A stretch of DNA of 38,615 bases from a virus. The position numbers and the translations under genes are program-made. Below the pieces are notes generated by a model. The model did no database searches, was not told the DNA's origin, and was given only the letters and a program-made list of their open reading frames with translations. Shown in pieces: positions 1-38,615 of the stretch. The DNA lies in IMG/VR virus record IMGVR_UViG_3300002461_000316, positions 1 through 38,615 of that record; one strand, 5' to 3'. Within the stretch, counting starts at the first letter, position 1, and the number at the start of each line of letters is the position of its first letter.

Positions 1-81
1 TCATGCTGCCGGTACACCCGAACGCCCAGGACGCGCTCAGAGCGATCCCGTTCACGGTGAGCGAGCAGAAGGTCTACGCGG
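1..81. repeat. Terminal exact direct repeat, left copy (identical to 38535..38615)
   Basis: Base-by-base comparison: tcatgctgccggtacacccgaacgcccagg...gagcagaaggtctacgcgg occurs at both window ends, 81/81 identical. The window cuts both copies, so the true repeat length is unknown. Confidence 0.97.
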
Positions 82-320
82 CGTTTCGCGCGCTCAGGGG
101 CCGCCTACGCAGGCCAGGGCTGCACATCCACGACCTTCGTCACTCCCTCGCCTCGGCCCTGGTGTCGAGCGGAGCGACGCTGCCCGAGGTCGGGGCGATG
201 CTGGGCCACAAGGCAGTCCAGTCCACAAAGCGCTACTCGCACCTGTACCCGGCCCGCGTGGCCGAGATCGTCGGCCGGATCGTTGTGCGAGAAAAATTGA
301 CCGGACCTGGCAAGAAATGA
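3..320 (+). pseudogene. int: Tyrosine recombinase (phage integrase), C-terminal ~105 aa only
   Basis: The translation contains the C-terminal catalytic motifs of tyrosine recombinases: HIHDLRHS (His-x-x-Arg), MLGHKAVQST and KRYSHL (catalytic Tyr). The N-terminal and Arg-I region is missing. When the ends are joined, the same frame is closed by TGA at 38444..38446. Confidence 0.8.
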
Positions 321-647
321 CGTCTGCAACGCTTGTTGCGCTTGATTCGCCCTATGAAGCGCTTGTATGCAGGGAGCGCGAAACGGACTTAAAATCCCTC
401 GCTCGCAAGGGCATGCCGGTTCGATTCCGGCCCCGGGCACCACGGAAAAACAACGGGTTACGCGGGGTCGGGGTGTTCCACGTGGAACGTGGTGTGCGAG
501 AAGATCTGACCGACCGATGAGCGCCGACACCCAAACGATGCTCGCGACCCTAGCGACCGCCGACCTCGCACGACTGGACCGATTCGCCGCCTGGGCGACC
601 GCGAACCAGGGCGCGCCCGGGCTTGATGTGCTGCTCTGGGCGGCCGA
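321..647. other. attP-like non-coding region between the integrase stub and the lysis cassette
   Basis: No convincing CDS. Three direct CGCTTG[TA][TA] repeats lie at 330-337, 339-346 and 360-367. The region holds the tRNA 3' fragment (385-442) and a perfect 14-bp palindrome, GTTCCACGTGGAAC, at 475-488. Confidence 0.5.
385..442 (+). tRNA. Partial tRNA-Leu(UAA): anticodon loop to CCA end only (att core candidate)
   Basis: Anticodon loop cTTAAAa, anticodon UAA (388-394). Long variable arm gctc-gcaa-gggc (401-412). T arm gccgg-ttcgatt-ccggc (415-431). Acceptor 3' strand cccgggc, then discriminator a and CCA (432-442). The upstream sequence does not supply a matching 5' acceptor strand (gccctat versus the required gcccggg), U8, or a canonical D arm. 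Confidence 0.7.
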
Positions 648-827
648 CTACCGCCGGGCAGAGTTGCGCTTGTCCCAGATCGACCACGCCACGCCGGCGA
701 GCGCCGCCAGCCCTCCCACGATCGCGTCCATCGTCGCGCCGTCAACGCCGTAGCGAACGGCCAGGCCGCCACCGATGGCGGTCAGAAGGTGTCGGGCCAG
801 AGCGGTCACGATCGCGGCGTTAAGCAT
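648..827 (-). CDS. Small membrane protein, holin/pinholin-like (59 aa)
   Basis: ATG at 827. MLNAAIVTALARHLLTAIGGGLAVRYGVDGATMDAIVGGLAALAGVAWSIWDKRNSARR has two Gly/Ala-rich hydrophobic segments and a basic C-terminal tail. It is the last gene of the lysis cluster. Confidence 0.55.
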   Translation of the reverse strand: MLNAAIVTALARHLLTAIGGGLAVRYGVDGATMDAIVGGLAALAGVAWSIWDKRNSARR

Positions 828-847
828 CGGCGGATCCTTGGGGTCGG

Positions 848-985
848 TCACTTCAGCCACCTGTCGAGGGCAGCGCTGATCAGCTTCACCGCCCACAGGC
901 CGCCGGCGACGCAGCCGGCACCGAAGGCGACGCCGCAGATCGCGGCGAAGAGGACGGCCAGGAAGCCGATCGAGAATCCGCTCAC
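848..985 (-). CDS. Very hydrophobic 45-aa membrane peptide (lysis-cassette member)
   Basis: GTG at 985 overlaps the endolysin stop (GTGA). VSGFSIGFLAVLFAAICGVAFGAGCVAGGLWAVKLISAALDRWLK. It is the 3' part of track ORF 848..1153, whose upstream part overlaps the endolysin in another frame. Confidence 0.5.
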   Translation of the reverse strand: MSGFSIGFLAVLFAAICGVAFGAGCVAGGLWAVKLISAALDRWLK

Positions 986-1461
986 AGAGAGCTCGCGTAC
1001 TGCCAGGCCTGGGCGTAGAGCCGGGGCCAAGTCTTTTTCTTCGGCAGGCCAGGGTTCCAAGCCAAGAGGTACTGCTTCCAGGCGCCCTCGACGTCGTCCG
1101 GCCCCGGGATCGCCGTCGGCACCCACCACAGATTGAGGCGGGCGAAGCAGCACGCCAGGATGTCGTTGTGCTCGACTGCCGCCCAGTAGTCGACGACCGG
1201 GTCTTTCGAGTCGTACCTCAATGCCTCGAGCACGGCCAGGATATGCGGCCGAGTCGCCCGGTGCGTCAGCACGCCCCTGATGCCGGCCTGCTCAAACTGC
1301 CAGAACCCCCTCGCGGGACCATTGTGCAGTTGCCGACGATGCTCGCAGCGGCTCTCCTGCAGGGCGATGGCGAGCAGGTTCGCCCGCGCCTCGATCGAGT
1401 TCATCCTGGGGGGCAGGAGTGTCATTGCCGCATCGTAGATCGGGCCGTACGCCAGTTTCAT
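982..1461 (-). CDS. Endolysin, lysozyme-like / lytic transglycosylase (SLT-like) fold
   Basis: ATG at 1461 (ATGA overlap with the upstream gene). MKLAYGPIYDAAMTLL...LLAIALQESRCEHRR...GPARGFWQFE carries the Glu-Ser catalytic motif typical of SLT-type muramidases. It sits between small membrane proteins. The long 329-aa track ORF is an upstream extension. Confidence 0.7.
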   Translation of the reverse strand: MKLAYGPIYDAAMTLLPPRMNSIEARANLLAIALQESRCEHRRQLHNGPARGFWQFEQAGIRGVLTHRATRPHILAVLEALRYDSKDPVVDYWAAVEHNDILACCFARLNLWWVPTAIPGPDDVEGAWKQYLLAWNPGLPKKKTWPRLYAQAWQYASSL

Positions 1462-1736
1462 CGCGGCTTCTCCATGGGTCGGTCGATCTTGTGAGCCAGC
1501 GTCCGCAGTGCCTCCTCGATCCTGACCTGCGCGCGGATCTGCTCTTCGTCCTGCCGGCGGTCGATGTCTTTCTGCAGGACGATGGCGGACTCGAGCATGG
1601 ACACCCGCTTGTCCAGGGTCGTGTACGCGTAGATGACAGCCAGCGCTGCCGACAGGAACGCGAGGATGTCCCCAAGACTCACCTCTCGCTTCAGGGTCCA
1701 CTTGCTCATTTCGCTCCGCATGCTGTTTTCCCTCAT
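1458..1736 (-). CDS. Single-TM protein with coiled-coil C-terminus (holin or i-spanin-like), 92 aa
   Basis: One TM segment (LGDILAFLSAALAVIYAY) is followed by a charged helical region (QKDIDRRQDEEQIRAQVRIEEALRTLAHK). ATGA overlaps occur on both sides. Confidence 0.5.
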   Translation of the reverse strand: MRENSMRSEMSKWTLKREVSLGDILAFLSAALAVIYAYTTLDKRVSMLESAIVLQKDIDRRQDEEQIRAQVRIEEALRTLAHKIDRPMEKPR

Positions 1737-2368
1737 GGCTGCAAAGAGGCCTGGCTGTCGAGCCAGTAGTGCTCTTCGTCGACGACGGCCTGTGGCGACC
1801 AGATCTGGATCGGCGACACGTCAATGGTGGGGGCCGTGGGGTAGATGAAGTCGTACCCGAATCCCACGTAGTGCCCTGTGTCCAACACCTTGCCGACGGG
1901 GAACTGCGGCAGTCGCACGCTCCCCTCAACGCGGGTCCAGTGCGTGCCCACAGAGACGCCAGGGCATTCAATGATTTGGTAATCGCCCGTGGAGTAATTG
2001 ATCCAAAATATGGGCACCACGTACAGATCGCCGGACGCTACCCGCAGCGCGCCTCTGTAGCTCACATCCGAGCCGACCAGCTCACGCGATTTGTACATGT
2101 GGTGCTCGAGCCAGGTCCACCGGCACTGCGGCAAGTACTGCGTCTCCCCTTGTGTGGGCATGGCGGTCCAGCGCATCCGCATGAAGTACTCGGGGTTGCC
2201 GGGCACCTCGGTCTGCCCGACAACAAATGGCACTCGAGTGACCTCGCACTCGCCGCCAACACCAGAGCCCGCCCAGAACTTGTTGGCGATCCAGGCGCCG
2301 CCATCCTTGATGCGAACGATGCCCGGAGGGGCCTGGCGATACCGGCTGTTCACAACGTAGTTGCGCAT
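1733..2368 (-). CDS. Tail-fibre-associated protein (distal fibre / receptor-binding or assembly), 211 aa
   Basis: ATG at 2368 overlaps the tail-fibre stop (ATGA). It lies directly downstream of the fibre gene, and the sequence is beta-rich and Trp/Tyr/Gly-rich. Function is inferred from position only. Confidence 0.4.
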   Translation of the reverse strand: MRNYVVNSRYRQAPPGIVRIKDGGAWIANKFWAGSGVGGECEVTRVPFVVGQTEVPGNPEYFMRMRWTAMPTQGETQYLPQCRWTWLEHHMYKSRELVGSDVSYRGALRVASGDLYVVPIFWINYSTGDYQIIECPGVSVGTHWTRVEGSVRLPQFPVGKVLDTGHYVGFGYDFIYPTAPTIDVSPIQIWSPQAVVDEEHYWLDSQASLQP

Positions 2369-3933
2369 CAGGCGAACTCCGCGTTGACGTAGATCCTGGC
2401 GTTGGCGTTGGCCGCATACAGCAGGCACCCGTCTCCGGCAGTGCGCACCGCACCGATGTCGCCACTGAGAACGGCCCTGTCGCGCTGCACCGTGGCCACG
2501 GTCGCCGACAGCGACGTCATGGCGTCGTTGGAGGTCTGCGTGGCGCAGAAGAAGTGGGCGGCCGCGCTGACGGTGATGGTTGGGCGAATGCGCTTGCGCT
2601 CATACTGGACGTTGAACGCGCCCGTGTCGGTGTCTGTCATGCGGCCTGCGCCGAACTGCGCGTTGACAACCCCGCCATCGCCAAGCGTCTCGAAGAACTG
2701 CAGGCAGCGGTCCTCGTCCACATCCCAGGGCGGCTCGACGATAGGGATGTCCGCGACGCCGCTGGCGGCAAGCCGCACGCCGGCGACCTCAAAGTGGTCG
2801 TTCGCCCCGGCGGTCCCGGTCCACAACGCCTGGAAGCCCAGCGCCACTTGGATGGCCGTGCCGTTGAGCGCCGCGCTCACGAGGCTGAACTCCTGCCAGG
2901 CCGTCGTGAGGGTGACGTTGGTGTTGAGAGCCGAGACGCTGCCCGTCCATGCCCCGCTCTCGACAGCGGTCGCGCTCTCGTCCCCCGCGGTGCCGGTGGT
3001 AAGCGACACCGTCAGAGTCGAGCCGGCCGTCGAGTAGCCAGACCCGCATCGCGCCCAGAATCGAATCGTGGTTGCCTTCCCCGATAGCAGGCGCGATACG
3101 TTCGACGGCAGCACAGTGCGGAAGCGGGTATCGCCGACTGTCGCCCCGGCGTTGCGCGTGATCCGCGCGCACGACAGGTAGGGCGCTCCTGGCCCCGACT
3201 GCTGCGCCGCGGTGACGTTGCCGGTCACGCCGCCGTTCTGGAAGCAGTACCAGCGCTGGAACACGTAGCTCACAGCACTGGCGACCGGGTTGTGCGAGGT
3301 GACCGTGGGGTCGCGCATGAAGTTGAACGCGCCGTTGATGAGCACATTCTGCGCGCCGACCTCTTGCAGCCCGAGCGTGATCCTCGCGGCGCCTGCGCTG
3401 GCGTCGTCGAGCACGGTGCGGATGAAGGCCGTGACCGTCATCAGCGCCGCCGTGCCAGAGCCGGTGAAGTACGGGGCCAGATTGGCGCCCGACGCCAGGC
3501 CGGCGAGCGCCGACAGCTCAGGATCCGCTGCGACGTTGAACGAGAAGACCATCCAGCGATTGGCTGCGAGGTCGGTGGCAAACACCCCGGCCGTGTGCCC
3601 CTCCAGGCAGACGTAAGTGTTCCCGCCCTGGGCGACCAGATCTAGGGCGGCGTAAACCGTCGCAGGGCCCCAGTTGCCTCGCGGGCGGAACGTCGAGTTC
3701 ATCAACGCGAGCACGTCTGGGTGCAGCGTGTGCATCTTGACGACCTGGTCGCGCAGCTCATCGTCATCGCGCTGGATCACCGCGAGGTTCGCCAGCAGCG
3801 CAGCAATCGTCGCTTGCAGCGCACTGAACTCAGCGTCGAGCTTCGCCGTGTTCACCGTGCTGCGACCGGACGTACTGCCGGCCTCCTCCTGCGAGAAGTC
3901 GGTCGTCGGGTTGTAGGCGGGGGGCTGACTCAT
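2368..3933 (-). CDS. Tail fibre protein, 521 aa
   Basis: The N-terminus (MSQPPAYNPTTDFSQEEAGSTSGRSTVNTAKLDAEFSALQATIAALLANLAVIQRDDDELRDQVV) is the conserved anchor/coiled-coil type I recall from proteobacterial phage tail fibres. The C-terminal part is Gly/Ala/Thr-rich. ATGA overlap with the giant gene. Confidence 0.7.
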   Translation of the reverse strand: MSQPPAYNPTTDFSQEEAGSTSGRSTVNTAKLDAEFSALQATIAALLANLAVIQRDDDELRDQVVKMHTLHPDVLALMNSTFRPRGNWGPATVYAALDLVAQGGNTYVCLEGHTAGVFATDLAANRWMVFSFNVAADPELSALAGLASGANLAPYFTGSGTAALMTVTAFIRTVLDDASAGAARITLGLQEVGAQNVLINGAFNFMRDPTVTSHNPVASAVSYVFQRWYCFQNGGVTGNVTAAQQSGPGAPYLSCARITRNAGATVGDTRFRTVLPSNVSRLLSGKATTIRFWARCGSGYSTAGSTLTVSLTTGTAGDESATAVESGAWTGSVSALNTNVTLTTAWQEFSLVSAALNGTAIQVALGFQALWTGTAGANDHFEVAGVRLAASGVADIPIVEPPWDVDEDRCLQFFETLGDGGVVNAQFGAGRMTDTDTGAFNVQYERKRIRPTITVSAAAHFFCATQTSNDAMTSLSATVATVQRDRAVLSGDIGAVRTAGDGCLLYAANANARIYVNAEFA

Positions 3934-6900
3934 CGCTGCTGCTCCTCGAGCTCGTCGTTGTACTTGCGCAGAGCGCGTGCCATGAGGGTGGCCTCGTCAC
4001 GCTGCAGTAGCCGCCGCTCCTGCGCACGCTCCTCGCGCGGCAGCTCGTCGACAGCTCGTATTTTCTTCGACAGGTTGCTCATTTCACGCCGATATTGCTG
4101 GCTTGAGATCTCGCGCGCCATCGCCAGCAGGGGCGCCTTCTCGTCGCGGATCCTCTCGGCACGCTCAATGTCACCGTCCTGCTCGTAGCCCTTGAGCAGC
4201 TTGAGCGCCCGGGTGGCGTCGTCGCGCAACCGGTAGTACTTCGACGCCAGGTCGCGGTCATCGACTTGGCCGTAGAACTTGCCGACGAACGGCACGCGGC
4301 GCGCCGGGTAGTCTTCCGGCTCGGCCTCGCCCAGCGCGCGGTTGACGGTGTGCCGGGAGAAGTCGAGCATCACCATCCCGAACTGACCGACGCCGCCGGT
4401 GGCGGTCTTCACGATGTGCTCGATCGTGGTCGGCGAGATGTCGATCGCACCGCCCTCGCGCTCGGTGCCGCCGGTCGCGGCCGACAGCCAGCGCGTGAGA
4501 TCCTTCGCCGTGTCGCTCGTCGAGCGGAAGTACAGCTGGTGGTCGGGCTTCGGGCCGCTCTGCGGGAACGGCTCGGGGCGCATCGGGCTGCCGAAGAAGG
4601 TCTTGTTCTCGGTGAACTGGACGAACGGGTCGGCGATCGTCGGTGCCGCGTACTGCATCGGCGTGGCGGTCTGGCCGAGCGGCACAAAGCTGTCGAGCGC
4701 GGTCTGAGTAAACGACCAAGCGAAGTCGATCGGCTTCTTGCGCTCCTGCACCAGGCCGCTGCCGCTGGCAGTAAGGATCGCCTCGGTCATCAGTCGGCCG
4801 GCGTTGTGGAAGACGTTGAAGCCGTACGGCAGCGGGATCTGGATGTGCTTCCCGTCGCGCATCATGAAGATCATGTTCCTCTGACGCACATGCTCGGGGA
4901 TGAGCTCGTAGCGCAGGTTCCCGTCCTCGTCCCGGTCGTCGTCGCCGAGCATGCGATTGACGAGCTCGAGGGCCGCGGCGAATGCGACCATCATGCCGGC
5001 GTACATACGGGCACGGCGAGACGTGGCGACGGCCTGCACCAGGCGCGCGGTGCCCTGCACGCTGGCGTTGAAGAACATGTACCAGGCATTGGCCGCGACG
5101 CTGCGGTTGCCCTTGCGGTTGAAGTTGACCGTCATGTTCTTGGCGATCGAGGCGGCCCGCTTGGGCGAGAGCCCCATCTTGCGCGCCTCGGCGAACGCCG
5201 ACAGGCGGATCGCGTTCTCGATGGAGTTGTTGGCGAGCTCGACGTACTCGAGCGCCTTGTGGCCCATCTCGCGCGGGTCGAGCCGGCTGCGCTTGGCGCG
5301 CTCGAGCAGCTTGCCGATCTCTGCCTGCCGGTCGAGCAGCGTGTCCCACATCTGCATCCAGCCGGTCTGGCCGCCGCTGTCTTGGAACTCGCGGTAGGTC
5401 TGCGCCCAGGTCGAGGTGCCGTCGCCCTTCTCGGCGTTCAAGACGCCGCGCATGGCCCGCGGGATGTTGGCGATGACCTGCGGCGCCCTGCCCTTGAGCT
5501 CGGTGTCCTGCAAGTTGACGGCCGCGGTCTGCACGTCGCGAGCGAAGTTGGTTACCCAGAACTGCGGGTTGTAGGTCGTGACCAGGTTGGCCATGACTCG
5601 AGTGATCCGCCCGACGACCTTGGTAACAGCGCCCAGCTGGACGACGCCGAGGTTGTTCATGGCGCTGGCAATCGCCATCGCCCGCTCGTTCGACGGGTTG
5701 AAGGTGATCACCCGCTCGACGATCTCGCCGTTGGCGCCCTTGTCCTTGACGATGAAGACGTCATCGCGCTGGCGCCACATGGGGTCGATGCCGGTCTGCA
5801 CCAGGCCCGTCGTCGGGTTGACGGTGCGCTTGGTCGGGGGCGTGTCGAGCCGCCAGAAGTCGGGGTTGGGGTTGTCCTCGACCATCTTGATGAGCGCCCG
5901 CCCGACCGTCGCCCGCTCGGCGCGAATGATCGCCCGCTCATGCTGCGAGATCACTGCCGCCAGGATGGCGATGGCCTCCTTCTGCGAGCCCAGGGCGCGC
6001 TTCGACTCCTTGCCGGACACCTTGAACCCCTGCCCAGCGGAGGGCGTGTCGATGTCGCGGAACAGCGGCACGTAGTTCTGGTAGGCGCCGCCCCATGCGT
6101 TGATCGTGGCCTGCGACTCGAGGCCTTCACTGACGAGGATCTGCCGGGTCGCGGCGGTGATCCCGTCGACCATGCCGGCGAGCCGGTTCAGATCGGTCAT
6201 GCGCCCCGCCCGGCGGAACCCGGCGATGATGTCGGCGGCATTGGCCGCACCCGGGTTGCCGTCGCGCGCAGCCGCGGCCGCGTCGTCGTACAGGCCCGAG
6301 AGATTGCCCGGCGCGCCCGGGTTGATCTTCGCCATCTGCTTGTTGCGCTCGGGGGCGTGGCGCGCCCAGAGGTACTTGCCGAGATCCTCTGCGCTCACCT
6401 TGGCGTCGCGCATCGCCTCGAGCAGAGGCTCGATGTGTGTGCGTGCCGCCTTGTTCACCCGAGCGCTCACGCGCCCGTGGTAGAGCTCCTCGGCCAGGTA
6501 GGCGTCATTGCCCTCGGTGATGAGGCCAGCGGCGCGCTTCATCTCGTCGCGCACCCGCTTGACGTCGATGAACCGGTCCTGCCACTCGCGCACCCGCTTG
6601 ACGTCGATGAACCGGTCCTGCCACTCGCGCAGCAGACGATCGACGAGCGCCGGCTCGTTCAGTCCGTAGGTTGGGGCGGCAGCGGCTCGCGGTCCAGTCG
6701 GTCGTCCACCGACAGGTCGCTGTCCGGCAGGCTGCGTACCTGCTTGAGGTGCTGCTCCCACTCCGGGTCGGGGCGGCCCTCTTGGAGCGCCCGGTCCAGT
6801 CTGGTTTGCAGCTCGATCGGCCCCTTGCGAGACTGGCTGGCGTTCTTGAGCGCGTGCGCTGGCACCTTGCTCCGAAAGCGCTTCACGTAGGCGCTGATGG

Positions 6901-9900
6901 ACTTCGTCAGCGGACTGTGGGGCACCTTCGCCCGTCGTCGGGTCGCCATAGATCTGCTCCAGGGTCGCGGCCCACTTCGGCATCGCCGTGCGGACCAGCT
7001 CAGGGTTGACATTGTAGAGGGCGCTCACTTGAGCGAACAGCTCGAGCTGCGCGACCTTCTCACCGGTGGCGCCGGCGGCGAGGGACCGCAGCGGGTAGGA
7101 CAGGATGCGGCCCAAGTCCGAGTCCACCTCGGCATTGGTCCAGGCGTACCAGGCCTCGTCGAAGAGGTCGCCCGCGTCGGTGTCGGTGAATCCCGTCGAC
7201 AGCCGCGGACTGCTCATCGATACGGCATCGCGCTCGCCCGAGGCGGCGAAGTCGATCGCGTGAGCGATCTCGTGCGCGAGGGTGTGCAGCGCCTCGTCGC
7301 GGATTGTCGGATCGGCAGAGCGCAGCATCGCCAGCCGATCCAGCGAAAGCGTGACGACGTTCTGGTCGGGGAAGTAGGAGCCGTTGGCACTTGCATCGCG
7401 GGACGCGAACGTCAGCCCGGCGATCACGTCCGGCGGCGCCAGCGTAGGCCCGAGATCGGCAATCGCCCGCTCGACCGCCAGCTTCTCGCTCGGCATCAGC
7501 CGCTTGACGTCCTCGCGGTTGCGTTGCGACTTGAACGCGAGCTCGGCCCCACCGGCGGTGCGGACGCTGGCCTTAGCCGGCGTCCGGTCGTCGAAGCTGC
7601 GGTCTAGCCGCGGCGGGGAATCTTCGGCAGCTTCGGCGGCAGCAGGCTCTGCGACGGCTTGTCGTCCGCCGCTTTCGACTGCTGCTTGGGAGCTCCCGGA
7701 ATCTTCTCGAGCCCGCGCCCCACCCTCGTCAGGAAGGACGACAGACTCTCGTCCGCCTCGTCCTGCGCGTCGGCGGGACGAAATGTCGGATCGAGCGCGC
7801 TCGACTGCTGCGTCGATTTGGGCCTGCGTGATCCCCTGGGATCGGGCGAGCGAGATAGCGGCCTCAGTGTGCGGCAAAACCTTGAAGTGGCCCTCGTTGC
7901 GCGATGCGCGATCGAAGTGTTGGGCAGCAAACTCATCGGGCGCGTTCGCCAGCGATGGGTCCATCTTCCGCATGAATGCCGCCTTAGCTTCGGTGCGGGT
8001 GCTGTAAACGCCCAACCGAAGATCCGGTTCGTAAGTGAAGGTGCCGGCAGACACCCCTGCCAAACCCCGCTTTGCCGTTCGACGCTCGGCGATCACGTAT
8101 CGCTTCGGCGTTTTGTCGTCGACCGACCGATCTTCTTGTGCTGCCTGCTCCCCGGCCTGCGCATCCCGTCGCGCCCGCTGCACGAGCGCCGTCTGCTCGG
8201 CAGTACGCTGGAATCCGGGCGTGCCCGCTGCCTCGGCGAGATCCGGGTAGCGGCGCAGGATCGAGATGTCCTCGGCAGTGCGTGCGAACGCGGGCGTCTG
8301 TGCGGCGCGTAGCACGCGCGCCATGTCCTCGGATGGCCCGAGGCTCGTCCGATCCCCAACGGGCTCGCTGGCGGCCCGCTCCGTAGGCCGAACGGTGTAC
8401 TCCGTGCCCTGCGGTTCCTGCGGTTGGGGCGGCGTGACGTCCCTCGCCGGTTCCTGCTGGCCGATGATCCGGCGCACGGCCGCGAGGATGGCCCCGCCGT
8501 CGGTGTCGCCGAGCTCGCCAGGCGGCACCTGGCTGGGCGTGCGGTCGCGTTCGTCGCGACCCTGGATCACCTCCGACGGGCGGATCTGCTGCTCGGGGCT
8601 CGAGGCGACATCCGAGGGCGCCGGCAGCAATGCCACCGGGGCGGCGGACTCGGTGCGCTCCTTGGCGTACTTGCCCCGATCGCGGCCACGCACGACCATC
8701 GGGATCCCCTGGTCGGGCAGGAACTGGCTGTCGATCGTCGGCAGCGGCGCGTCCTGCTCGGAGGGCTGGATGCTGTCGAGCGTCTCGCGCACGCTGGCGA
8801 GGATCCGCTCCTCTGGACTCAGGAGGTCGCCCGGGAGTACTGGTGGTGACCCTTCCGCCCCAGGGAGATAAGGCGGACGGGGGACAGACCCCGGGCGAAC
8901 CTGTGGAACCGGACGCATCCCTGCGGAGGTGATGCCCGGGTCGAACGTCTCAGAATCACTGAGGAGTTGGCGAGCGAGCGCGGTGATGTTGTCCGCGTCG
9001 CTCATCGTGGACGGGTCGAGCGTGCCCGGGTCGCGGCCGAAACGGTTCATCAGCCCACTGCGCGCAGCCGCGCCGGCCTGCATGCTGCCAGAGACGATCG
9101 CGCCCATGGCGGCCGCATGCGCGACCTGCTCGAGCATCTGCTTGGGCGTCATATTGGGGGCGAGCCCCGACACGAGGTTGTTCTCGATCTGGCCGAGCTG
9201 GGTGACGCTCTCCCCCAGCGACTCGGCGGCCATCGCCTTCACCCGCTGGGTGAGCGCCTCGCCGCTCATGCCGGCAGTCTTCAAGGCCTTGATCGTCTCG
9301 CCGAAACCGATCTGCTCGCCCAGGAACTCCCAGAAGGCGTCGACCGCAGCGATCTGGGCGCGCTCCCCTTGGGACAGGTTCGCCAGCGACGGGTCGTTGT
9401 AGCGTGCGCCACCAGCACCCATCGCCATCGCAAGCGTCGGGGCCTTCGTCACCGCGAACGACTGCATGAGCGTGGCGACCTGCGTCGGTGTGACGGCGTT
9501 CTTCAGCGGCCCCATGGCCATCCAGTAGAACGGAGCGTTGGCGCCGATCGTGGCGATGGCATCCTCGACGAACTTGCCCACGCCGGCGAGTTGCTGGACG
9601 TTGCCGGCGGCCGCCTCGCGCTCGATGCGCGACTGAGCGAAGTAGTCAGAAGCTGTGTCTGCCCCGACGACATCCGAGATGCCGCGCGCCACACCTTCGC
9701 TCTGCGAGTAGAGCTGATCTGCCGCGCCGACGACGCCGCGTACGATCGGAGCGAACGCCGGGTTGTCGACACCACCCACGGCCTGGCGGGCGGCGCTGGC
9801 AATCACGCCTGGCATGGTCTTGGGCTGCCTGGGGTCGCCGATCTGACCACGCGGCACCCGGGCCTCGATCAACGCACTGCGCCGGGCATACTCCTCGGGA

Positions 9901-36817: not shown

Positions 36818-37069
36818 ATGAGCAGCAACCGGATTTACCTGATTCACCACTCAGCCGTACACGCAGACGGCGTTGCCGTTCAGACGCACCTCGTCGAGGC
36901 GCCGAACAAAGCGCAAGCAATATTGCACATCGTGCGGGAGCACATGTCGGCGCGGGTCGCCACGCAGAACGACCTGGTCATCTGGCTGCAGCGGGGGCTG
37001 AAGGTCCAGACCGTCTCGAGCCAGCCGGCCGAGATCGCCCCCGCCAACGAGCGCGACGCACGTGGATAG
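36818..37069 (+). CDS. Hypothetical early protein, 83 aa
   Basis: AGGAGAAG SD. MSSNRIYLIHHSAVHADGVAVQTHLVEAPNKAQAILHIV... Confidence 0.55.
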   Translation: MSSNRIYLIHHSAVHADGVAVQTHLVEAPNKAQAILHIVREHMSARVATQNDLVIWLQRGLKVQTVSSQPAEIAPANERDARG

Positions 37070-37421
37070 CAGAGACGCTCACCGCATCCTGCGGGCCAAT
37101 CGCAATCCCGCCGCCAACTCTCCCGCCGCAATTGCCGCATGCGCTGCGAGCGACGCGCCCCCGCCCCGCCCGGCGCCTGGAGAGATCGAGGCTCTCGCCC
37201 TGCAGCTGCACGACGAGCTCAACCTGCTGGCCGAAGACATCTCGCGTCTTCAAGGGCGCCTCGCCCCCGCGCTGTCCGAGGCAGAGCCAACCGACAAGAT
37301 TTCCAGCGAAGTGTTCGCAACCCCGAGGACTCCGCTGGGCGGGAGTCTTCGGTCAGCAATCAACTGGGTCGGAGCTCATCGGCAGGCGATCACCGACCTC
37401 ACCTTCCGGCTCGAGTTGTAG
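37062..37421 (+). CDS. Hypothetical early protein, 119 aa (GTG start, uncertain)
   Basis: GTG at 37062 overlaps the upstream gene by 8 nt. Pro/Ala-rich N-terminus, then a helical segment (EIEALALQLHDELNLLAEDISRLQGRL). Confidence 0.4.
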   Translation: MDSRDAHRILRANRNPAANSPAAIAACAASDAPPPRPAPGEIEALALQLHDELNLLAEDISRLQGRLAPALSEAEPTDKISSEVFATPRTPLGGSLRSAINWVGAHRQAITDLTFRLEL

Positions 37422-37453
37422 CCGGCCTGCACCTCCACATCAAGGACAACAGC

Positions 37454-38116
37454 ATGACCACCAAAGGCTTCAGGATCGTCGAGCAGGACGTCGAGTTCAC
37501 TCACATGAACACCCGACTCGAGAAGAACGGCCCCAACGAGAAAAAGAACGCCGTCGATCTCACGATGTCCATCCAGATGGAGAACGACGTCCTCGATTCG
37601 ATCCTGCCTGGACTGCGCACTGCGTTCTACGCCAAGCCGAGCAAGGATGACATCGGCGACCTGGCCGACCAGGGCAAGATCGATCGCCCGATCCGGCTGA
37701 AGTACCCCGCCCTCGCGGTCCAGTCCTTCGACAGCGAGTGGGTGAACTACACCCTGGCGTTCCACTACGGGATCGACGGGGAGAGCGACGTCGTCCTCGA
37801 GGACTGCACCGTCAAGAGCATGAAGATCGAGCTCCACGACGGTGGCACGGTCGACATCAACTGGAAGGTCGGAGCGCACCCGACCGACGACCAGTACGCT
37901 GTCCTGTCGGAGCGACTGCGCACCGGTAAGGTCCAGATCACCCTCGTGAAGGCCAAGCAGGTCGAGAAGCAGAAAGACCTGCTCGACAACGAGCCGGTGC
38001 CGAACCCGGTCGCCGCTGCGGCGAACGACGATGAGGTTCAGGCCGACTCGATGGCGGCAGCCCTGGCCGCACTGCCCGCCGATCAGCGGGCCGACGCAGC
38101 CTCGAGCCTGGGGTAG
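37454..38116 (+). CDS. Hypothetical early protein, 220 aa
   Basis: ATG at 37454 with AAGGA upstream. MTTKGFRIVEQDVEFTHMNTRLEKNGPNEKKNAVDLTMSIQ.... The 325-aa track ORF is an upstream extension. Confidence 0.55.
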   Translation: MTTKGFRIVEQDVEFTHMNTRLEKNGPNEKKNAVDLTMSIQMENDVLDSILPGLRTAFYAKPSKDDIGDLADQGKIDRPIRLKYPALAVQSFDSEWVNYTLAFHYGIDGESDVVLEDCTVKSMKIELHDGGTVDINWKVGAHPTDDQYAVLSERLRTGKVQITLVKAKQVEKQKDLLDNEPVPNPVAAAANDDEVQADSMAAALAALPADQRADAASSLG

Positions 38117-38118
38117 TC

Positions 38119-38355
38119 ATGGACAGGCCACGCTGCGTCACATGTGGGCGCTACTTCAAGCACGAGGCCGGCGTGGCGTGGCGAATGGTCTACTCGGGCG
38201 GCCCGCTGCCCGAGCCAGACCACGAGGCCTACCGTTGCCGGCCTTGCGTCGAGAAGGTCGGCCCGTTCGACCCGCAGCCGGGCATCAGGCCCGAGTTCTC
38301 CTGCGGCATCGTCAAAGAGATCGGGCACGTGGAGTCCTGGGAGGGAAGGCAGTGA
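38119..38355 (+). CDS. Zinc-ribbon-like small protein, 78 aa
   Basis: MDRPRCVTCGRYFKHE...YRCRPCVEKVG carries CxxC...CxxC. Confidence 0.5.
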   Translation: MDRPRCVTCGRYFKHEAGVAWRMVYSGGPLPEPDHEAYRCRPCVEKVGPFDPQPGIRPEFSCGIVKEIGHVESWEGRQ

Positions 38356-38594
38356 GCGAAGAACTGAGGAAGGCGGCGCGGGAGTTGATCAAGTCGCTTC
38401 GACGAGACGCCGATTGCCAGGCGATGGAATTTAACGGCGAAATTGAGGCAGTAGAAGCCGCCCTGGCCGCGACAGAGCCGTGCCCTACGTGCGGAGGTTT
38501 TCACCGGGACTGCGGACTGACAACGACGCCCCGCTCATGCTGCCGGTACACCCGAACGCCCAGGACGCGCTCAGAGCGATCCCGTTCACGGTGA
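38352..38594 (+). CDS. Small early protein whose 3' end reads out-of-frame into the integrase-stub / terminal repeat, 80 aa
   Basis: GTG at 38352 (GTGA overlap). VSEELRKAARELIKSLRRDADCQAMEFNGEIEAVEAALAATEPCPTCGGFHRDCG... continues as ...SCCRYTRTPRTRSERSRSR inside 38535..38594, in the +1 frame relative to the integrase stub. Confidence 0.45.
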   Translation: MSEELRKAARELIKSLRRDADCQAMEFNGEIEAVEAALAATEPCPTCGGFHRDCGLTTTPRSCCRYTRTPRTRSERSRSR

Positions 38595-38615
38595 GCGAGC
38601 AGAAGGTCTACGCGG
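38535..38615. repeat. Terminal exact direct repeat, right copy (identical to 1..81)
   Basis: Same 81-mer as 1..81. Implied unit length is 38,534 bp. This fits a circular or terminally redundant genome, or an attL/attR pair. Confidence 0.97.

Follow-up and report, generated by a model that had tools for sequence, protein, structure and literature searches.

The exact 81-bp repeat that joins the two ends of the analysed phage sequence is, with a probability of roughly 80%, an overlap left by assembly of a phage genome that is circular or circularly permuted, its position pinned by a fork between two variants of the phage beside a real scar in an integrase gene. The window, meaning the whole stretch of 38,615 bp that was analysed, is a phage genome of 65.8% G+C whose minus strand encodes the terminase (small and large subunits), the major head protein, a tail fibre and a giant LPD38-domain protein of 2,132 aa, and whose plus strand carries an early operon, including a YqaJ exonuclease and RecT, with an integrase fragment at its end. 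A sister contig that is identical to the window over the early stretch (L001) shows Cro-like and HTH genes. As a de Bruijn-graph contig of a temperate-type phage the window is complete, and the genome assembles as a circle. The one hint of a host, an integrase match among species-representative genomes, comes from a Thiomonas sp. metagenome-assembled genome (L012, DAIDHU010000563.1) and at 43% identity is too distant for the host to be named.

Direct comparison of the window ends confirmed the repeat and the unit length described in the sequence-only reading. Positions 1..81, which fall within the integrase remnant, are identical to 38535..38615 at 81 of 81 bases, leaving a circular unit of 38,534 bp; a terminal overlap had been taken to call for an exact repeat of at least 20 bp at the contig's two termini. 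The 81-mer occurs in the window just twice, at the termini, where chance would predict no copies, and no prefix of the window longer than 81 bp recurs as its suffix. The earlier suggestion that the repeat might extend past 81 bp, having been truncated on both sides, is contradicted by database records: JGI/IMG has an entry for the 105-aa stub protein in which the longest contig measures 38,615 bp, so the window appears to be the entire contig and the repeat was not cut short. A look-up of this protein as a called gene found no record.

Sister contigs were found by exact-protein look-up in the re-assemblies of two runs from an activated-carbon metagenome project (PRJNA301005). The contig k127_108532 from run SRR2905840 (8,069 bp; loci L002 and L005) covers 37522..38534 followed by 1..7095, with a single copy of the 81-mer and three mismatches, and its alignment to the window is ungapped up to a repeat-copy difference near 6590. 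Because this contig crosses the joint, the end-to-start join is real sequence, and the fusion of the early region with the integrase is not an artefact of the window's own assembly. The same contig (at locus L002) provides the independent read-through, with one repeat copy and unchanged gene order, that was sought as a further mark of a terminal overlap. The contig k127_115755 from run SRR2905841 (ENA; 39,982 bp), which was rebuilt without conflict from L004, L021 and L001, starts with 1,405 extra nt, continues with the whole unit less 39 nt, and closes with 82 nt of the repeat. Three small ORFs and a xis-like ORF (MSERLSAKQAAAILGV...) lie in its extra segment, along with codons 1-226 of an integrase that is complete at 336 aa; nothing in the window or in relatives corresponds to the segment's first 570 nt. 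Compared with the window, k127_115755 is identical from 38522 to 94 and unrelated leftward of this segment, differs by six SNPs within 95..260, and is then identical to about 6,590; beyond 260 the remainder of its genome equals that of the window apart from a 39-nt difference in repeat copies. One activated-carbon metagenome project thus contains at least two versions of the phage, or of very close relatives, and the full-integrase ENA contig could itself be a chimera of the two variants.

Two repeats of other kinds were observed on these sequences. A perfect 39-bp tandem repeat (2.2 copies) lies at 6547..6631 within the gene of the 2,132-aa LPD38 giant protein and has one copy fewer in both ENA contigs, corresponding to 13 aa less, which is copy-number variation in a probable tail or ejection protein. 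On k127_115755 (L004, reverse strand), the 19-mer TGAGCGAGCGCCTGAGCGC opens each of three successive small ORFs that lie upstream of the full integrase, at 170, 331 and 570, in two exact copies and one with 3 mismatches, and the products of these ORFs begin VNERLS, VSERLS and MSERLS. The window lacks this 19-mer, which may promote module exchange as a repeat at gene boundaries.

Aligning the window's join with k127_115755 mapped the scar to 38521|38522 on the plus strand, 13 nt from the repeat edge, where early-region sequence meets integrase codon 227 in what would be a deletion or replacement. The sequence-only reading had placed the fusion point between about 38447 and 38537, within 90 nt of the repeat edge, and had proposed that a search against phages with intact integrases would locate the breakpoint; the scar does lie in that interval, and the alignment to the full-integrase contig narrows it to the position given here. 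At this point the integrase sequence reads CCGCGGACGAAG|AACGACGCCCCGC and the window reads CTGCGGACTGAC|AACGACGCCCCGC. To the left of the scar the two are unrelated save for a GCGGAC hexamer and one further base, and a short imperfect homology is found just upstream of the scar, consisting of GCGGAC, four unmatched to partly matched bases and then AACGAC. If the left parent shared some of the bases that follow, the fusion point would lie slightly to the right of 38522. The first integrase-derived bases, from codon N227 onward (38522..38534, plus strand), form the left 13 nt of the segment common to the two variants. A k=31 Logan contig from SRR2905841 that covers the early region (L003) ends exactly at 38521, an end that would be produced by a fork in that run's graph at 38521. 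A further k=31 Logan contig from the same run (L006), covering the tail-fibre region, ends at 414, within a tRNA-Leu fragment downstream of the integrase, which is consistent with the graph forking there to a host tRNA-Leu gene or to some other att-core-bearing element in the sample.

The two versions of the locus differ as follows. One has the xis-like ORF complete, a tyrosine integrase of 336 aa and an attP module; in the other, the stub version seen in the window, early-region sequence stands in place of everything upstream of integrase codon 227, through replacement or through a deletion. We infer that illegitimate or short-homology recombination produced the scar and took out the xis-like ORF together with integrase codons 1-226, and the phage's own RecT/YqaJ system may have made it at the short imperfect homology. 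The left parent, that is, the original continuation of 38521, was sought with a 38-mer among IMG/VR viral contigs and with a 28-mer among JGI metagenome contigs (a collection that also lacks the window's own contig), with no match in either, and blastn of 37000..38615 did not find it among GenBank phages. Nor was any sequence found that precedes the 1,405-nt segment in the full-integrase variant.

The placement of the contig ends can be derived from the sequence shared by the two variants. They are identical over just 107 nt (38522..38534 and 1..94), and the 81-mer sits at the exact centre of this segment with 13 nt on each side, which bears out the earlier suspicion that the contig does not break at an arbitrary place. 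Under the node-centric de Bruijn rule, a unitig starts k-1 bases before the first specific base and ends k-1 bases after the last. In a graph simulation of the circular unit together with the full-integrase contig at ten k values from 77 to 127, k=95 was the sole value that gave a unitig start at 1 and a unitig end at 38615, so that the repeat geometry is explained by a k value that the source assembly presumably used. The arithmetic is as follows: 95 - 94 = 1, 38521 + 94 = 38615, and the overlap is 2 x 94 - 107 = 81. As the variants agree only over the short 107-nt node, the assembly graph would fork on each side of it; the contig would start one k-mer ahead of the first stub-specific base and end one k-mer past the last, and each contig end would reach into the common node, leaving the 81-nt overlap. 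What tells against the model is that in its pure unitig form it adds a break at 260/261, the point at which the variants rejoin; for it to hold, the bubble at 95..260 would need to have been collapsed with the 107-nt node left unmerged. The MEGAHIT k127 contig from SRR2905841 stops at 82, one base past the window end, a position that k=127 does not explain. The assembler and its working, with k=95, are presumed from the model; that the contig ends are set by a short node common to two variants holds whatever the exact mechanism. Among the other settings tried by simulation and arithmetic, k=81, SPAdes-type edge conventions and path-extension models, none yields 1 and 38615.

The integrase remnant occupies 1..320 on the plus strand, entered across the join from 38522..38534, and encodes residues 227-336 of the 336-aa tyrosine recombinase plus the stop codon. 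Its match to the Pfam family Phage_integrase (PF00589) covers profile positions 106-170 of 172 only, and the best solved-structure match is the catalytic domain of HP1 integrase (1AIH). According to the 1AIH alignment, the first catalytic Arg is R198 and the conserved Lys is K226, both of which lie upstream of the break and are lost, and H274, R277, H300 and Y309 are kept in the stub. A functional tyrosine recombinase was taken to have a complete catalytic domain (Arg-I, Lys, His-x-x-Arg, His/Trp and Tyr) and an N-terminal core-binding or arm-binding domain; the catalytic domain of the stub is incomplete, and residues 1-226 are absent from the window. Additionally, no xis-like ORF was found in the window upstream of the remnant. 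Because the arm-binding and core-binding domains are missing from the remnant along with two catalytic residues, and no xis-like ORF precedes it, the stub variant would be unable to integrate or excise by itself, though an apparently intact attP is kept.

The alleles of this remnant also carry information on its age. Within 95..260 (plus strand), the stub differs from the full-length allele at positions 95, 96, 98, 125, 173 and 260, variant-specific bases beginning with position 95 on the right of the common segment, and all six differences are synonymous although just 27% of possible single changes are. Comparison with relatives L007-L011 indicates that the changes at 95, 96 and 98, and probably the one at 125, arose in the full-length lineage, where selection would keep changes silent. 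The changes of the stub lineage are those at 173 and 260 (polymorphic) and a nonsense allele at 186 (polymorphic). The contig k127_108532 has the window alleles at 95-173 joined to the early region and the scar, and since k=127 is greater than the 107-nt node, this linkage of scar and alleles is no graph ambiguity. The same contig has T for G at 186 (L002 position 1199), as well as C at 260 and T at 1717; the change at 186 turns the codon at 186-188 from GAG to TAG, a nonsense mutation in the stub frame. Being few and partly nonsense or polymorphic, the stub-lineage changes give no sign of constraint on the stub, and judged from these alleles the integrase truncation looks recent.

Downstream of the integrase by 65 nt, at 386..442 on the plus strand, lies a 57-nt attP-like copy of the 3' part of a tRNA-Leu(UAA) gene, comprising the anticodon, variable and T arms, the 3' acceptor strand and CCA. 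The fragment is single-copy in the window, gives a partial tRNA-clan alignment, and matches annotated tRNA-Leu genes as well as unannotated stretches of several other phage records; a complete tRNA was not found at this place in the window. The identity between related integrase modules and the window ends at 442/443, which marks the right edge of the att core, and an integrase followed by a tRNA-Leu fragment is the usual layout of an integrase-attP module with a tRNA 3' end as its target. Other phage contigs have, in the matching place, integrases with 87-93% identity to the full-length one, and the relatives L007-L011 share the order of early operon, xis-like ORF, integrase, tRNA-Leu fragment and minus-strand late genes, including the LPD38 giant protein. 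The early genes differ among the contigs carrying related integrase modules. A sibling phage, represented in both runs by contigs of 44,320 bp (L013, k127_100076; L014, k127_97887), has the same layout, with YqaJ, a homologue of the 220-aa early protein and an LPD38 giant protein; its early operon abuts a holin, an endolysin and the late genes, with no integrase and no tRNA fragment there. At this position the integration module is thus an exchangeable cassette, and the one in the window is decayed.

On the other side of the scar, the reading frames behave largely as the sequence-only reading had described them. Reading the frames confirmed that the integrase frame is closed upstream of the join by a stop at 38444-38446, and it is open from 38447 through the join to 320; it also confirmed that the ORF with the CPTCGGFHRDCG motif (38352..38594, plus strand) enters integrase sequence out of frame and stops at 38594. 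The description of this ORF as coding-looking fared less well. Its GC3 is 0.66 vs 0.83-0.87 in neighbouring genes, it is not called as a gene on two sister contigs, and no homologues were found among 5.8 billion proteins or among 1.84 billion representatives, so that the ORF is doubtful; its non-integrase part is limited to 38352..38521, a 170-nt stretch separating the last solid early gene from the scar, and its final 23 codons are out-of-frame integrase. A candidate origin of 38356..38521 as a diverged piece of xis, of the extra segment or of relatives was rejected, as tblastx and blastn gave no similarity. The last confidently coding early gene, at 38119..38355 on the plus strand, encodes a 78-aa protein with CxxC motifs, has a GC3 of 0.87 and is called on L001, L002 and L003. 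Window positions 38103..38333 match positions 3186..3417 of another contig (L019) at 89% DNA identity, and the match ends at 38333, 22 nt ahead of the stop of the 78-aa gene, whose homologue on L019 is 105 aa long with an extra Cys-rich tail. Past this match, L019 holds other small genes and then the apparent N-terminus of a different integrase at the contig end. By this alignment, 38333 is another mosaic joint just upstream of the scar. A terminator and promoter scan of the region gave nothing above chance.

In metagenomic viral contigs, terminal repeats usually arise when circular or concatemeric templates are assembled; their lengths cluster at the k values of assemblers, and the breaks seem random (CheckV, PMC8116208). 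A plain circular-contig overlap of this kind, in which a loop with a final k of 81 was cut arbitrarily and the closeness to the scar is coincidental, would agree with 81 being odd, like de Bruijn k values, and with the circular order confirmed by an independent contig. The window indeed resembles the direct-terminal-repeat contigs of CheckV in its identical start and end, its phage-sized unit and the circle seen in an independent contig; unlike theirs, its break is pinned by the 107-nt two-variant node instead of falling at random, and its overlap of 81 equals 2(k-1) minus the node length at k=95, not k. A random cut would centre the 81-mer to the base in the 107-nt node in about 1 in 38,534 cases and would fall within 13 nt of the scar in about 7 in 10,000, the simulated k=81 unitig ends are 15 and 38601 rather than 1 and 38615, and the second assembly ends one base away, at 82. 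Mainly on account of the exact centring of the 81-mer, the arbitrary loop was rejected as improbable. A biological repeat, whether the attL/attR pair of an integrated prophage or a direct terminal repeat physically present on a packaged genome, scarcely merits belief. An exact direct repeat at each end of a phage-sized unit with integrase sequence nearby is what it would lead one to expect, but the repeat lies entirely within a gene remnant, its edges are predicted by the variant-specific bases and k=95 alone, and the sister contig runs left from position 1, without a terminus there, into the rest of the integrase and phage-like small ORFs. The attL/attR proposal of the sequence-only reading fails on the same evidence: the sole att-like sequence, the tRNA-Leu fragment at 386..442, is single-copy and outside the repeat, and no host DNA is apparent outside the repeats, the contig ends reading into each other. 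Its broader idea that the repeat edge is a recombination junction stands insofar as a real integrase-gene scar adjoins at 38521|38522, but the 81-bp repeat itself is no recombination product. Its fallback, a k-mer overlap of a circular assembly, came closest to the truth but is incomplete in assuming an arbitrary start. The preferred reading remains that of an assembly overlap of the circular genome at the variant fork.

Two further alternatives concern the scar and the history behind it. It is very improbable that the fusion of early region and integrase is a misassembly, a chimeric join through a short repeat with no such molecule behind it. The short imperfect homology at the join (GCGGAC, four bases, AACGAC) could have invited such an error, and the ENA contig of 39,982 bp does combine both contexts; yet the join is seen in three assemblies from two sequencing runs, the 8-kb k=127 contig ties it to stub-specific alleles and a private nonsense mutation, and a k of 127 is longer than the 13-nt junction homology and also than the 107-nt node. 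A more tenable, if still somewhat unlikely, alternative holds that two different phages share only the integrase-attP end and that the stub is an old, fixed remnant, not a recent deletion within a population. The six differences at 95..260, all of them synonymous, suggest the divergence of two alleles that were both functional at the time, no counterpart of the extra segment's first 570 nt is seen in the window or relatives, and the integrase module is mosaic among phages with different early regions. Against this, the ENA contig past 260 equals the window save for the 39-nt copy difference, though an assembler would collapse such phages anyway, and the few, partly polymorphic changes of the stub lineage (173, 186, 260) argue for a recent event.

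Set beside known systems, the locus shows the parts of a tRNA-targeting integration module in a reduced state. Like other integrase-attP modules directed at the 3' end of a tRNA gene, of which that of HP1 (1AIH) is an example, the full-length sibling has the Arg, Lys, His-x-x-Arg, His and Tyr residues and places its integrase 65 nt upstream of the 57-nt tRNA-Leu 3' fragment. HP1 likewise integrates into a tRNA-Leu gene. Unlike such modules, the window keeps only residues 227-336 and has neither Arg198 nor Lys226, neither of the two DNA-binding domains and no upstream xis-like ORF. Virulent Streptococcus thermophilus phages carry truncated integrase genes, and phage Sfi21 undergoes spontaneous deletions in its lysogeny module. 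As in the integrase remnants of such non-lysogenic derivatives of temperate phages, the 5' part of the integrase and its neighbours have been lost at the end of the lysogeny or early region, the rest of the genome is intact, and the stub variant co-occurs with integrase-positive relatives. Unlike in those derivatives, repressor-like and Cro-like genes are apparently still present on L001, and the window variant is known from metagenomic sequence alone.

Combined, these results describe an ordinary feature, a defective integrase remnant together with an assembly overlap, and they carry a caution for the reading of viral contigs: strain-level variation can place a terminal repeat non-randomly, and the length of such a repeat need not be k, nor does a position beside an integrase make it an att site. 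A more far-reaching proposal, considered rather unlikely, is that the stub variant is a natural integration-dead derivative that keeps attP beside a proficient sibling, either borrowing Int and Xis in trans or caught part-way through the loss of lysogeny; if the trans-borrowing reading were true, the stub variant would integrate and excise only through the Int and Xis of its sibling. Without adding a new mechanism, the finding of a half-deleted integrase with a kept attP, a sibling with the whole module and a further relative without an integration module at that position, all in one community, provides a small snapshot of the gain and loss of integration modules.
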